Positions 14,850-59,008 of a DNA stretch of 64,000 bases are shown here, piece by piece. Below the pieces are notes generated by a model. That model was not told the origin of the DNA. It worked only from the letters and a program-made list of their open reading frames with translations, and did no database searches. Every line of letters begins with the position of its first letter. Within the stretch, counting starts at the first letter, position 1. The stretch lies in NCBI RefSeq assembly GCF_988243305.1, contig NZ_OZ547136.1. One strand, written 5' to 3'. A program made the position numbers and the translations under genes.

Positions 14850-15042
14850 TATTTTCTCTTTTCTGTTAATTATTGAGAATAATTATTACTTCACTCAATA
14901 AGCTGCGGATATAACATTCTGAACCGCAGCTATTTGTGAATCCTTTCACAGTATAAATTTCCCCACGCGCATAGCCTTAATATCAGCACGCAATATTTAT
15001 TTAGCGTTCGCCTTAATTACTCATAGCATTAAGGAAGATCAC

Positions 15043-22506: not shown

Positions 22507-22647
22507 ATTCACTACCTGTTATGAGATTGCAGTAAATGACTGCTTGCTGGCGGCTATTTTGTCAGCACTGAATACAGGACTTCGTGAATCGAGTCACAGC
22601 AATGGAAACGGTTACAGCCGTTTTGTTAACGAATGTGATCCAGATCG

Positions 22648-40489: not shown

Positions 40490-42181
40490 TTACGCTGCTT
40501 TCGCTACTGCGTCCACTTCCGGACGTTTCAGGAAGGCATAGGCCAGACCCGCCACCAGCGTACCGGCAATAATGGCTACCAGGTAACCCAATACCGGCGT
40601 AATCGCGCCAGGGATCAGCAGAACAAACAGACCACCGTGCGGTGCCATCAGTTTCGCACCAATCGCCATTGAGATTGCGCCAGTCAGCGCCCCACCCACG
40701 ATACAGCACGGCAGCACACGCATCGGATCACGGGCAGCAAACGGAATTGCACCTTCCGAAATAAAGCACAGTCCCAGTACCAGAGCGGCTTTGCCCCCTT
40801 CCTGCTGCGCTTTGTCGAATTTGCGACGCGCCACCATTGTTGCCAGGCCCATTGCCAGCGGTGGCACCATACCTGCCGCCATAATCGCCGCCATCGGGCC
40901 ATAGGTTTGAGTACTCAGCAGACCCACACCGAACGCGTACGCTGCTTTGTTTACCGGACCGCCCATGTCAGTACACATCATGCCACCGAGGATCGCCCCC
41001 AGCAGAACCGCATTCGCAGTCCCCATGGTCTGCAGCCAGTGAGTCAACCCTTCGAGAATGCCAGCAACCGGTTTACCGATCAGATAGATCATCGCCAGAC
41101 CGACCACCAGACTGGAAATTAGCGGAATGATCAGAATCGGTTTCAGCGCCTCCATACTCTGCGGCAGTTTCAATTGCGTACTGATTAACTTCGCAATGTA
41201 ACCAGCCAGGAAGCCCGCAATAATACCGCCAATGAAGCCAGAACCGGTGCTGACCGCCAGCATACCGCCAATCAGACCCGGCGTGAGACCCGGACGATCG
41301 GCAATGGAAAAGGCAATATAACCTGCCAGTACCGGCACCATCAACGCAAAGGCTGAACCACCACCAATCTGCATCAGCGCCGCAGCCAACGTACCCGGCT
41401 CTTTAAACGCTTCGATACCAAAAGCAAAAGAAAGCGCGATACACAGACCACCTGCAACGACCATCGGCAGCATGTAAGAGACGCCCGTCAGCAAGTGACG
41501 GTAAGCGCCTGCACTCTCTTTCTTACCTTCAGTGGTCGCTGTTTGAGTTTTGCCCGCCGGTTCATACGGCGTTGCTTCAGCAACCGCTTTATCCAGTTCC
41601 TGCGCGGTTTTCTTCAGCGCCAGACCGGTAGAGGTGCGATACATCGGTTTACCAGCAAATTTCGCCAGATCCACTTCAATATCTGCCGCCACAATCACCA
41701 GATCCGCTGCGGCTACTTCTTCAGGGGTGATTGCATTACCCGCGCCAACCGAACCACGGGTTTCAACTTTCACCCACCAGCCACGTTTTTTCGCTTCGGT
41801 TTCAATGGCTTCAGCCGCCATAAAGGTGTGTGCTACGCCAGTCGGGCAAGCAGTCACCGCAACTACGCGTTTCGGACCGCTGGCGGCAACCGGTGCTGTC
41901 GCAGCGACCGGCGCAGTGTAAGGTTTCGCATGGCCTTTGGCTTCACTCAGGAACAGCTCAGGGTGCGCAACTGCCCGGGAAATATCGCCCAGCCAGACAT
42001 TTTTACCGTTCAGCGCGCTGTCGTTCGGGATGGAATCACCGAGAACAATCGCCATTTCAGCGTCGTTCGGATTGTCGATGATTTCCAGTTTTGCTTTTCG
42101 CGCCGCCGCGCCCAGCAGGGTCTTCGCCATATAGGCGCGTGCCTGACCGAGATTAGCGTCAATAATCAGCAGCGTTTTCAT
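40490..42181 (-). CDS. fruA: Fructose PTS enzyme IIB'BC
   Basis: 563-aa product MKTLLIIDANLGQARAYMAKTLLGAAARKAKLEII... Confidence 0.97.
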   Translation of the reverse strand: MKTLLIIDANLGQARAYMAKTLLGAAARKAKLEIIDNPNDAEMAIVLGDSIPNDSALNGKNVWLGDISRAVAHPELFLSEAKGHAKPYTAPVAATAPVAASGPKRVVAVTACPTGVAHTFMAAEAIETEAKKRGWWVKVETRGSVGAGNAITPEEVAAADLVIVAADIEVDLAKFAGKPMYRTSTGLALKKTAQELDKAVAEATPYEPAGKTQTATTEGKKESAGAYRHLLTGVSYMLPMVVAGGLCIALSFAFGIEAFKEPGTLAAALMQIGGGSAFALMVPVLAGYIAFSIADRPGLTPGLIGGMLAVSTGSGFIGGIIAGFLAGYIAKLISTQLKLPQSMEALKPILIIPLISSLVVGLAMIYLIGKPVAGILEGLTHWLQTMGTANAVLLGAILGGMMCTDMGGPVNKAAYAFGVGLLSTQTYGPMAAIMAAGMVPPLAMGLATMVARRKFDKAQQEGGKAALVLGLCFISEGAIPFAARDPMRVLPCCIVGGALTGAISMAIGAKLMAPHGGLFVLLIPGAITPVLGYLVAIIAGTLVAGLAYAFLKRPEVDAVAKAA

Positions 42182-42197: not shown

Positions 42198-43136
42198 TCA
42201 GTTAAAAGGTTGTAAGTCGACGCGCGCCATCATTGCGGCCAACTGCGGACGATCGGTAATACCCACATTGCTTTGACTTACCGCCAGGGCTGCAACAGCT
42301 GTCGCCAGACGCAGTGTGTGTTCACTGGATTCACGCATCAGCAAGCCATAAATCAGGCCACCAACCATAGAATCCCCTGCGCCAACGGTGCTTACGACAT
42401 CGACTGACGGTGGTTTGGCGATCCATTCGCCGGAGGCATTAACCCAAAGCGCGCCTTCGGCACCCAGTGAAATAACGACATGCGCGATACCCTGTTCACG
42501 CAGCGCATGCGCAGCTTCAATCACATCTTTCATTTCAGGCAGTTTACGGCCCGCCCAGATTTCCAGCTCGCGGCGGTTAGGTTTCACCAGCCACGGTGCC
42601 GCTTTCAAACCTGCTACTAACGCTTCACGGCTACTATCAAAGATAATGCAAGGACACTGACTACGCAGGCGAGTCATCCAGTCGGTGAACGCTTCCGGGC
42701 TGACGCCTGACGGTAAGCTTCCGCTGACACAGACCATATCGAACTGACCGAGCCAGCTCAGAGAATCAGTCACAAAGCGTTCCCAGTCGGCGGGAGTGAC
42801 TTCAAAACCCGAGAAGTTGAAGTCGGTCACTTCGCCGTCTTTTTCCGTCAGCTTAACGTTAATTCGGGTGCGCCCCTGTACAACCTGGAAACGGTTGGCA
42901 ATGCCCAGCTCGCTGAACAGTTGCTGAAAACCATCCTGATTGTCTTTACCGAGGAAGCCGCCAACGGTGACATCAATTCCCAGGTCTTTTAATACTTTGG
43001 CCACGTTGATGCCTTTACCCGCCGCATGCAGACCGGTGGTTTTCACCAGGTTCACTTCGCCGCGTTCAATTTCCGGGCAGAAACCAACAAGGTCATAAGC
43101 CGGATTAAGGGTGATAGTAGCAACACGTCTGCTCAT
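42198..43136 (-). CDS. fruK: 1-phosphofructokinase
   Basis: 312-aa product [49 protein letters not shown]... Confidence 0.97.
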   Translation of the reverse strand: MSRRVATITLNPAYDLVGFCPEIERGEVNLVKTTGLHAAGKGINVAKVLKDLGIDVTVGGFLGKDNQDGFQQLFSELGIANRFQVVQGRTRINVKLTEKDGEVTDFNFSGFEVTPADWERFVTDSLSWLGQFDMVCVSGSLPSGVSPEAFTDWMTRLRSQCPCIIFDSSREALVAGLKAAPWLVKPNRRELEIWAGRKLPEMKDVIEAAHALREQGIAHVVISLGAEGALWVNASGEWIAKPPSVDVVSTVGAGDSMVGGLIYGLLMRESSEHTLRLATAVAALAVSQSNVGITDRPQLAAMMARVDLQPFN

Positions 43137-44266
43137 TATGCGCCCTCCCCAAGACCAGCAGCGATAGCGTCGCCAATGGCTTTCAGCGCCTGTTCAGCAT
43201 CTGCACCCTGGGCGGTAAAGCGTAGGCGATGACCTTTCTTAACGCCAAGTGCCACAACTTTCATCAGACTACGTCCGTTTGCCGGTTTGCCGGTGCCATC
43301 AAGGTTTGTCACGGTAATATCACTGTTAAATTGTTTAATGGTATTGACCAGCATGGTACCTGGACGAGCATGCAGGCCGTGTTCATTGCGCACCACAAAC
43401 TCCGCGCTTAACACGTCGTCGGTCGGCGCATCATCGCTGGTCAGCAGCGCCAGCAACGTTGCCGCATCCGCTTTCAGCAAGCGGTCAGCTTTATTGTCGA
43501 GTAACAAATCAGCGAGACGCTTAAGAACCGCAATGGGCTGATCGTCATTCATCGCCACACTCACCAGCATGGCTGCCGTTTCGCCGTCCACATCAAAAGC
43601 ATTTGCCGCACGGCTTACCGCAATCGCGCTACGCAGATTGCCTTCGGCGCTATCGCTCAGCCAGATACCCTGTCCGAGGTTCAGCGGTTGTTCATTGATA
43701 GCTTTGGTGACGAAAGTGGCGTCAACTGCCCCCGCCTCTTTCAGACGAGCAGCGTTCAGCGCCTGAAGAGTCAGCAGATCGCTGGCGACGATATCCAGCG
43801 TCAGCATTTCGTTGTCGAGCTTCAGCTGCTCACTCTGCTTTTCGCCCATCAGCAATGCGCGAAGTTCTTCTGCTGTTGTTGCTGACTTCAGTTGTTCAGC
43901 AACGGAATCATCGCTCAGTACGTGGGTCAGCTGGCGTAGCAGGCCCAGATGTTCATCCGAGCTGGCAGCAATACCGATCGCCACGTACGCTACCTGGCCG
44001 TCACCCCAGGTGACGCCTTCCGGGAACTGAAATACCTGAACGCCGGTTTTCAGCACCTGATCGCGGGTGTCGGTAGTGCCGTGTGGAATAGCAATACCAT
44101 TGCCGAGGAACGTAGAGGTTTGCTGTTCGCGCGCCAGCATGCCATTGACGTAGCCTTCAGCTACATTACCGGCCTGCACCAGCGCCGCAGCGACATGGCG
44201 AATCGCCTCTTCTTTGTCTCCGGCCTTTTCGCCCGGATGGATGTCCTGTACGGATAACTGGAACAT
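43136..44266 (-). CDS. fruB: Fructose PTS diphosphoryl transfer protein (FPr; EIIA-M-HPr fusion)
   Basis: 376-aa product [35 protein letters not shown]... Confidence 0.97.
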
Positions 44267-44280
44267 AGTTCTCCTCTCTT

Positions 44281-44301
44281 GCTGAATTGAAACGATTCAG
44301 C
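44281..44301. promoter_or_regulatory. Cra (FruR) operator-like palindrome upstream of fruB
   Basis: gctgaattgaaacgattcagc, palindromic, matches the Cra half-site GCTGAA..TTCAGC. Confidence 0.6.
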
Positions 44302-44352
44302 TTCTATGAGAAAAAAAGCGCCAACCTGGCTTAGGGTTAAAGACAAGATCGC

Positions 44353-44368
44353 GCTGAAACGTTTCAAG
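44353..44368. promoter_or_regulatory. Cra (FruR) operator upstream of fruB
   Basis: gctgaaacgtttcaag matches the Cra consensus GCTGAAACGTTTCA. Confidence 0.7.
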
Positions 44369-44633
44369 AAAGCATAATACTTCTGTTTCAGCACGCAAGG
44401 AAAGCCGTAAAGTTATGAGCAAAAGTTTGATGTGCTGCACAATTTTTTGTCATTTTTCCTAATTGCTGATGGGAAAATCCGTTATCAGCAATTTCATTTC
44501 AGCAGCGTCAGCAGCCAATCAGCAACAGTGAAATGGCATTTTGATTATTCGTGGCGCTTTTGATTTCGCTGTCTGTTTATTTTCTGACAAGCAGCGTAAA
44601 CTCCGCGTCTTCCTCTTCCAGTGATCGACCAGC

Positions 44634-45815
44634 ATGCATAACTCCCCCGCAGTCTCCAGCGCGAAATCGTTTGACCTGACCTCGACGGCGTTTTTAATCG
44701 TTGCTTTTCTCACCGGTATTGCGGGCGCTCTGCAAACCCCGACACTCAGTATTTTTCTTACTGATGAAGTACATGCCCGCCCGGCGATGGTGGGATTCTT
44801 CTTTACCGGCAGCGCTGTCATTGGGATTCTGGTAAGTCAGTTTCTCGCCGGGCGCTCTGATAAGCGCGGCGATCGCAAATCGCTGATTGTCTTTTGCTGC
44901 CTGTTAGGCGTGCTGGCCTGCACTCTTTTTGCCTGGAATCGCAACTACTTTGTTTTGCTATTCGTTGGCGTCTTTCTTAGCAGCTTTGGCTCGACTGCTA
45001 ACCCGCAAATGTTTGCCCTCGCCCGTGAACATGCTGACAAAACCGGACGTGAAGCGGTGATGTTCAGCTCTTTTTTACGCGCTCAGGTTTCACTGGCATG
45101 GGTCATTGGCCCGCCGCTGGCTTATGCCTTAGCGATGGGTTTCAGCTTTACGGTAATGTATCTGAGCGCAGCGGTAGCGTTTATTGTTTGCGGCGTGATG
45201 GTGTGGCTGTTTTTACCGTCGATGCAAAAAGAACTTCCACTGGCGACCGGCACGGTTGAAGCGCCGCGCCGTAACCGTCGCGATACGCTGCTGCTGTTTG
45301 TCATTTGTACATTGATGTGGGGCTCGAACAGCCTGTACATCATCAACATGCCGCTATTTATTATCAACGAACTGCATCTTCCCGAGAAACTGGCCGGTGT
45401 GATGATGGGGACCGCCGCCGGGCTGGAAATCCCGACCATGTTGATTGCCGGATATTTCGCCAAACGTCTGGGTAAGCGTTTCTTAATGCGCGTTGCTGCC
45501 GTGGGTGGCGTCTGTTTTTACGCAGGAATGCTGATGGCGCATTCACCTGTCATTCTGTTGGGCTTGCAGCTGCTAAATGCTATTTTTATTGGCATTCTGG
45601 GTGGCATCGGGATGCTCTATTTTCAGGATTTGATGCCCGGTCAGGCAGGTTCAGCCACCACGCTCTATACCAACACTTCGCGCGTGGGCTGGATCATCGC
45701 AGGATCAGTGGCGGGCATCGTCGCCGAGATCTGGAATTATCACGCTGTGTTCTGGTTTGCGATGGTGATGATTATCGCCACTCTGTTTTGCTTACTACGG
45801 ATTAAAGATGTTTAA
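44634..45815 (+). CDS. setB: MFS sugar efflux transporter
   Basis: 393-aa product [36 protein letters not shown]... Confidence 0.9.
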
Positions 45816-58663: not shown

Positions 58664-59008
58664 TTAAAAAGGATTGTAGTTTGAGAAGGGTTCGGCAATT
58701 GCCACACCAAAATTTTTCAATCGGCATGTTGCAGCAAACTCGTCCTGGCGATTTACAAACAGGCACGGCTCACCTTCACACTCCAGTACCGAACATGGAA
58801 CTTCGATGTCGCTTAACGCCTGGCTGAGTTTGTACATCACCGACCATGCATTATCACCATCCGGGCTAAGCAATTTAAGCGCCACCAGGCTGTTGTCACC
58901 GCACGGTCCATTTTGCGGAATCGGTTCAACCTTCGAACCTGCGAAACCAGCAGACCAGCGATAGTTCTGCGGCAGTCGATGGACGATTGAGAGTTGTAAT
59001 GAAGTCAC
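58664..59008 (-). CDS. yejG: Uncharacterized protein YejG
   Basis: 114-aa product [35 protein letters not shown]... Confidence 0.85.

Follow-up and report, generated by a model that had tools for sequence, protein, structure and literature searches.

The fruB upstream region and its two palindromes

The question raised by the region upstream of fruB is whether its two palindromes are operators of Cra (FruR), as an initial annotation had proposed, and what the leader between them contains. The whole stretch of DNA that was analysed, 64 kb in length and referred to as the window, is from E. coli, and the 601 bases around both sites are found in 5,417 of 5,426 complete E. coli genomes. The fruBKA genes are located on the minus strand with setB divergent from them:

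44634-45815, plus strand: setB, an ORF divergent from fruBKA
43136-44266, minus strand: fruB, an ORF of 376 amino acids, annotated as fruB in RefSeq
42198-43136, minus strand: fruK, 3' of fruB
40490-42181, minus strand: fruA, 3' of fruK

The two strings quoted in the initial annotation, gctgaattgaaacgattcagc at 44281-44301 and gctgaaacgtttcaag at 44353-44368, are both present where they had been placed, upstream of the fruB ORF. The match to the Cra consensus in the first string is restricted to 44286-44301, with positions 44281-44285 outside it. The two operators, designated O1 and O2, are the following:

44353-44368: Cra operator O1 (promoter-proximal), with the sequence GCTGAAACGTTTCAAG (plus strand) or CTTGAAACGTTTCAGC (sense strand of fruB), overlapping the putative transcription start
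44286-44301: Cra operator O2, the promoter-distal site within the leader, with the sequence GCTGAATCGTTTCAAT (sense strand of fruB), 20-35 nt before the ATG

Relative to the putative start, O2 is found at roughly +63 to +78. The order is thus promoter, O1, leader, O2 and fruB, a position compatible with repression if the start site is as deduced below. The earlier description of the sites as belonging to the leader and promoter region was right, O1 overlapping the putative start and O2 preceding the ATG.

The Cra consensus was taken as a core of the two half-sites TGAAWC and GWTTCA and, in its longer form, as the 16-mer GCTGAAWCGWTTCAGC, of which the left half is the better conserved. The core TGAAWCGWTTCA has only two exact matches in the 64-kb window, and these are the cores of O1 (TGAAACGTTTCA, 44355-44366) and O2 (TGAAACGATTCA, 44288-44299). 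The mean number expected by chance was 0.02, and none of 100 dinucleotide-preserving shuffles reached two matches. Compared with the 16-mer each operator has two mismatches, all located in the outer, weak half.

Weaker matches elsewhere in the window were rejected as Cra sites. Those at 14937 (tGTGAatccttTCACA) and 22585 (cGTGAatcgagTCACA), with one mismatch to the core, are CRP-type boxes of the form TGTGA/GTGA-N6-TCACA, showing that the Cra core pattern cross-matches CRP sites. The match at 58915 has three mismatches and is situated within yejG. The CRP boxes are TGTGAATCCTTTCACA at 14936-14951 in the preT-yeiS spacer and GTGAATCGAGTCACA at 22583-22598 in the yeiB-galS spacer upstream of galS, the latter followed by a GalR/GalS-like sequence, TGGAAACGGTTACA.

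Identity with the published operators

The sites are the published fruB operators, proximal (O1) TTCTTGAAACGTTTCAGC and distal (O2) GCTGAATCGTTTCAA. In Table 1 of PMC10760178 the proximal operator is given as TTCTTGAAACGTTTCAGC and the distal one as GAGGCTGAATCGTTTCAA, both attributed there to Ramseier 1993. On the sense strand of the window ttcttgaaacgtttcagc (44370..44353) equals the published proximal operator, and gaagctgaatcgtttcaa (44304..44287) equals the published distal operator save for one flanking SNP at 44302. This position is one base outside O2; the sense strand has A in the window and G, the published base, in K-12, and BL21 also differs from the window. The GAG/GAA mismatch to the published distal oligonucleotide is therefore due to a strain SNP. 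In K-12 MG1655 both 16-mers are identical to those of the window, and so is the rest of the leader except for 44302.

Cooperative binding of Cra to O1 (TGAAACGTTTCA) and O2 (given as TGAATCGTTTCA) has been reported (PMC4050194), and the FruR operator of Saier & Ramseier 1996 is quoted as GCTGAAACGTTTCAAG, which is the second of the two strings (PMC6263354). For enteric bacteria, the FruR sites of fru are described as lying downstream of the transcription start, with fructose-1-phosphate as the inducer (PMC7897506).

The sequence identity with published operators supports the interpretation given in the initial annotation and shows that the element is already known. With cores that are exact, non-random and conserved, it is practically certain that O1 and O2 are Cra operators at the start site and in the leader, cooperatively bound and released by fructose-1-phosphate. 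The sequence identity, non-randomness, position and conservation were found here; the binding, the cooperativity and the induction by fructose-1-phosphate are taken from the literature. Nothing contradicting Cra binding was met in this analysis. When fructose is lacking, Cra, a dimer of the LacI/GalR family, occupies O1 and O2 and keeps fruBKA off; fructose uptake gives fructose-1-phosphate, by which Cra is released. The exact start and the way in which O2 contributes to repression are inferred. The sites had been put forward mainly as a positive control and are suited to that use, being the ordinary, long-known Cra (FruR) sites of the fructose operon. It is only as such a control that they matter, and fruB and its operators had been placed correctly.

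Conservation of the operators

For comparison, one genome per species was used, giving 80 Enterobacteriaceae loci with a FruB identity of 80-99% and alignments of 81 sequences. The genera include Escherichia, Citrobacter, Salmonella, Enterobacter, Klebsiella, Raoultella, Kosakonia, Leclercia and Atlantibacter. All 80 other species have an exact O2 core. An exact O1 core is found in 74 of the 80, with a single outer base changed in the other six. The core-to-core spacing is 66-68 bp across species.

The inward-facing halves are invariant, GTTTCAGC of O1 (81/81) and GCTGAA of O2, and it is the outer halves that vary. Such a distribution agrees with the asymmetry known for the Cra consensus, reportedly described by Ramseier in 1995. 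At the W positions of O2, Escherichia, Citrobacter and Salmonella have T..T, Kluyvera has T..A and the remaining genera have A..A. A loop inversion in the O2 palindrome (TGAATCGTTTCA versus TGAAACGATTCA) was considered and rejected, because only the two W positions change and Kluyvera is intermediate.

Promoter and upstream region

The elements upstream of O1 are:

44398..44393 and 44376..44371, minus strand: putative fruB promoter built of conserved elements, -35 TTGCGT, 16-nt spacer and -10 TATGCT
44426-44441: CRP-like site TGTGCAGCACATCAAA (TGTGC-N6-TCAAA, 44441..44426), about 70 bp upstream of the putative start

The CTTG of the -35 element is invariant across the aligned sequences. The -10-like hexamer, which is AAGACT in most genera, follows 16-17 nt after the -35 and has a fixed distance from O1. 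Judged from these elements, transcription probably starts at about 44363-44365, inside O1. In RegulonDB the fru start is reportedly placed 97 nt upstream of the ATG.

A consensus scan of 44200-44700 for promoters and terminators reported neither. The promoter was missed because the putative hexamers match at 8 of 12 positions with a cut-off of 9, and the leader terminator described below because its hairpin is long and interrupted. With both elements below the thresholds, the negative outcome of the scan is uninformative.

Upstream of O1, 78 of the 81 sequences have a motif TGTG[CG]-N6-T[CT][ATG]A, and in 72 its distance is fixed. The conserved CRP-like site agrees with the single CRP site that genomic SELEX gave for both fruBKA and setB (PMC3105977).

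Some further repeats were observed in this region. An isolated half-site, GCTGAAAC on the sense strand (44385-44392), follows closely on the -35 within the spacer of the promoter and makes up an 11-nt inverted repeat together with the distal half of O1. GCTGAA is present at this position in 30 of the 81 species, mostly of Escherichia, Citrobacter and Salmonella. Upstream of the CRP site there is a perfect 10-bp inverted repeat, AATTGCTGAT/ATCAGCAATT (44461-44470 and 44484-44493), with a 13-bp spacer; the arm nearer to fruB aligns with a motif, (T/A)TCAGCAA, that most genera have retained.

An intrinsic terminator between the operators

The leader between O1 and O2 contains two adjoining features:

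44317-44355, minus strand: terminator hairpin with the stem base AGCGC/GCGCU, its first 3 nt being the last 3 nt of O1
44310-44317, minus strand: U7 tract (44317..44311) and a C (44310), which is the mapped RNA 3' end

The hairpin is part of the MFE fold, with the U7 tract directly after a G+C-rich stem. The stem is seen in the folds or the alignment of all 81 sequences, with a median of -15.5 kcal/mol (two rows being without a score), and at least six T in the best 8-nt window are found in 71 of the 81. Five stem pairs show compensatory changes; one is CG in 31, UA in 26 and UG in 21 sequences and another CG in 43 and UA in 22. The upper stem and the loop diverge freely while the base of the stem is kept. 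For the whole leader structure tested, 91.6% of cells are paired compared with 43-62% for slid partners, and there are 75 double-change cells compared with 13.8 in shuffles, values that apply to a structure derived from the same, related sequences.

An RNA 3' end mapped by Term-seq at MG1655 2263539 corresponds to window position 44310 (K-12 coordinate = window + 2,219,229), and the flanking sequence in the Term-seq table matches. The average number of 3' end reads was 218,310 in LB at OD 0.4 and 431,335 in LB at OD 2.0, and the end is included on the third condition sheet too (PMC7815308). The same source gives it a Rho score of 0.26 ('No') and an intrinsic-terminator score of 9.61, and no label as 'characterized regulatory element' (PMC7815308). 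The name fruB was not found in the text of that article (Adams et al. 2021, PMC7815308), and the literature searched contained no discussion of a terminator or a roadblock at fruB. Rfam, searched at a permissive E-value, gave only meaningless eukaryotic matches and no known RNA family in the leader. The leader sequence shows no ORF for a leader peptide, and the supplements of Bar 2021 gave nothing on a named sRNA or a RIL-seq partner of the leader RNA.

O1 and O2 thus bracket a conserved, experimentally mapped intrinsic terminator, and this is the only new point besides the pairing at the Shine-Dalgarno sequence described below. The abundance of the terminated leader RNA in LB, to which no fructose was added and where Cra is assumed to be active, suggests that O1 does not fully shut off initiation. 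The abundance fits with much of the control being exerted after initiation, and a high stability of the short RNA would explain it equally well. The abundant leader RNA might also have a function of its own.

Predicted pairing of the U-tract with the Shine-Dalgarno region

Downstream of the stem, the U-tract has a second possible partner:

44308-44316, minus strand: anti-Shine-Dalgarno segment UUUUUUCUC, which shares the terminator U-tract and includes CUC
44270-44278, minus strand: Shine-Dalgarno region of fruB, GAGAGGAGA, 4-12 nt before the ATG (44266)

When the full leader is folded (MFE, z -2.1), UUUUUUCUC (44316..44308) is paired with GAGAGGAGA (44278..44270) in a helix that encloses a hairpin at O2. 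RNAalifold recovers this helix, which is 96.5% paired across species. Two of its pairs are swapped on both sides, UA in 61 to AU in 10 sequences and UA in 64 to AU in 7, and CUC:GAG is replaced by CAC:GUG in leaders of the Leclercia/Pseudescherichia type. From the helix a masked ribosome-binding site is predicted for the read-through mRNA, the U-tract covering the fruB Shine-Dalgarno sequence in those transcripts that pass the terminator.

O1 and O2 with their flanks (44353-44374 with 44280-44301) form a 22-nt inverted repeat that is 82% complementary. A pairing between the O1 and O2 RNA, enclosing the terminator, is predicted at -24 to -30 kcal/mol versus -31 kcal/mol for the fold with the masked Shine-Dalgarno region. 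It was rejected as a switch, being probably no more than what two palindromes of similar sequence give automatically.

A natural deletion between the operator cores

The two cores share a direct repeat, and the unit between the repeats is the following:

44288-44354: 67-bp unit delimited by TGAAACG, the direct repeat present in both operator cores, and equal to the deletion in BL21

In an evolved E. coli BL21 lineage a 67-bp deletion in the fru 5' UTR was described as loss of the Cra binding site (PMC10101011). The deleted sequence is TGAAACGATTCAGCC...GATCGCGC (Table S1 of PMC10101011). In the product a complete TGAAACGTTTCA core is kept at the start site, and the separate O2, the terminator and the anti-Shine-Dalgarno segment are lost. 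Strains with the deletion have more than twofold raised fru mRNA on all four media including 0.5% fructose, with the largest rise on glucose, and they also carry the substitution A39S in FruK (PMC10101011).

The deletion, which collapses both operators into one, derepresses the operon and in this respect counts for the Cra operators. Because it removes the terminator and leaves an intact core, the phenotype may not come from lost Cra binding alone. The rise on fructose, where Cra is already released, gives a hint of a negative element independent of Cra. The presence of such an element within the deleted 67 bp is only suggestive, as the strains have FruK A39S as well.

A possible role of Cra at O2 in leader termination

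The position of the terminator immediately before O2 leads to a further explanation of the distal operator, in which Cra bound there blocks the polymerase at the leader terminator. Early termination would in that case be governed by Cra and fructose-1-phosphate, and the transcripts that read through would be poorly translated. This is a tentative proposal that is more probably wrong than right. The release point would be 44310 with O2 9 nt beyond it, and Cra bound to O2 would halt the polymerase at the U-tract or shortly before it and so promote release. RNA polymerase extends over roughly 15-20 bp in front of its active site, and on reaching 44310 it would therefore run into a protein bound at 44301-44286.

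Between O1 and O2 there is the conserved hairpin with a U-tract and covariation, and the abundant Rho-independent 3' end from Term-seq is exactly at the end of the U-tract. The distance from the U-tract to O2 is without insertions or deletions in the 81 sequences, and variation in length is found in the hairpin loop and in the linker of O2. The 67-bp deletion is also in favour, a core being kept at the start while fru mRNA rises on every sugar tested. However, the points that support a roadblock by Cra are geometric throughout. The terminator may be a constitutive damper, and the FruK A39S substitution of the deletion strains could change the fructose-1-phosphate level. That there are two operators is already accounted for by their classical cooperativity, and the silence of the searched literature on such a mechanism at fruB also counts against it.

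Taken together the fruB module would consist of operator, terminator, operator and Shine-Dalgarno clamp, with most transcripts terminated at about 55 nt, a roadblock dependent on Cra and fructose-1-phosphate, and a masked ribosome-binding site. As a whole this scheme is speculative and deserves rather more doubt than belief. If Cra does act at O2 by way of the terminator, the model of how a classic repressor of the LacI family silences its best-known target would change. It would be explained why O2 is found in the leader, and deletions from evolution experiments described as affecting the Cra site would need to be reinterpreted. To a specialist on Cra or the PTS it might be unexpected that a textbook operator system has a conserved, Term-seq-mapped and unstudied leader terminator, predicted to clamp the Shine-Dalgarno sequence.

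The second symmetry at O2

The first string had been described as an unusually extended palindrome. The 21-mer at 44281-44301 is indeed a perfect inverted repeat of 7+7 bases with a 7-base loop, but it has its centre at 44291, 2.5 bp off the dyad of O2 (44293.5). It is a second, offset symmetry rather than an extension of the operator palindrome, and it arises from a pentamer next to O2:

44281-44285, minus strand: TCAGC pentamer, 3' of O2 on the sense strand, completing GCTGAAT/ATTCAGC and thereby a predicted RNA hairpin (44301..44281)

The hairpin is predicted at -7.7 kcal/mol in a 29-nt context, with z -2.8 in E. coli. In every species an RNA hairpin of 5-7 bp is predicted at O2, with energies from -3.6 to -8.5 kcal/mol. 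CAGC or CGGC is kept in 81 of 81 sequences, the U.G-compatible CGGC occurring in five sequences of the Citrobacter type. Taken together with the pentamer, O2 measures 21 nt in 53 sequences and 22 nt in 26, with single cases of 20 and 25 nt. No covariation is seen in the 81 sequences, the left arm of this hairpin being the invariant operator half.

Instead of an RNA hairpin, GCTGA/TCAGC could be an extra Cra half-site with the register shifted by 5 bp, providing two alternative placements of Cra. TTCAGC is the outer part of the right half of the consensus, GWTTCAGC, the pentamer is conserved in all 81 sequences, and GCTGAAAC in the promoter spacer is another isolated half-site. An extra half-site is nevertheless improbable. 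The distance between the operator and TCAGC varies, which a rigid protein-DNA register would not tolerate, and in the shifted register the left half (ATCGTTTC) matches the consensus at only 3 of 8 positions. The CGGC of the five Citrobacter-type sequences alters the DNA motif and keeps the RNA U.G pair. With the variable linker and the U.G-compatible changes, the conserved GCTGA/TCAGC fits better with an RNA hairpin than with a protein half-site in a fixed register.

That the two sites are chance matches, or are recognised mainly by another regulator with a similar box (such as CRP or a LacI-family protein like RbsR, PurR or GalR/GalS), is extremely unlikely: LacI-family operators do have the central AAACGTTT in common and the one-mismatch core matches elsewhere in the window are CRP boxes, but the sites are identical to the operators in published Cra binding experiments, two exact cores stand against an expectation of 0.02, neither O1 nor O2 has GTGA...TCAC arms and a separate, conserved CRP-like site is present about 70 bp upstream.

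Comparison with known systems

The operators agree in locus, sequence and order with O1 and O2 of fruB in E. coli K-12 and S. typhimurium, which were defined in Ramseier 1993 and later employed in Chavarria 2014 and by the Swint-Kruse laboratory in 2023/24. The only difference from the K-12 operators is the SNP just outside O2 at 44302, and they are thus a known element in another strain. In the Term-seq catalogue of premature 3' ends and 5'-UTR RNAs (Adams et al. 2021) the end of the fruB leader is one entry.

Multiple operators for one repressor are likewise found in lac (O1, O2 and O3) and gal (OE and OI), and fruB has one operator at the start and one downstream, bound cooperatively. The spacing of 67 bp at fruB corresponds to about 6.4 helical turns, and O1 and O2 are therefore not in phase for a simple loop. 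By AFM, Cra was seen as a dimer on each fruB site (PMC10760178). Unlike in lac and gal, looping at fruB is only proposed, possibly by bridging through FruK.

The fruB operons of Vibrio cholerae and Pseudomonas putida share the regulator family, the core motif and the target operon with the system described here. The functional fruB operator O1 of V. cholerae is located between -35 and -10, and FruR with fructose-1-phosphate is an activator there (PMC7897506). For P. putida a repressor role of FruR is described, with its site or sites downstream of the fru transcription start (PMC7897506). The order operator, terminator, operator is enterobacterial and is not described for V. cholerae or P. putida.

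Repressors that act as roadblocks include PurR within purB, CcpA and CodY, and LacI on downstream operators. Like the sites of these repressors, the Cra operator O2 is situated downstream of the start, in the path of the elongating polymerase. Unlike them it comes immediately after an intrinsic terminator, to which the binding of Cra would hypothetically be coupled.
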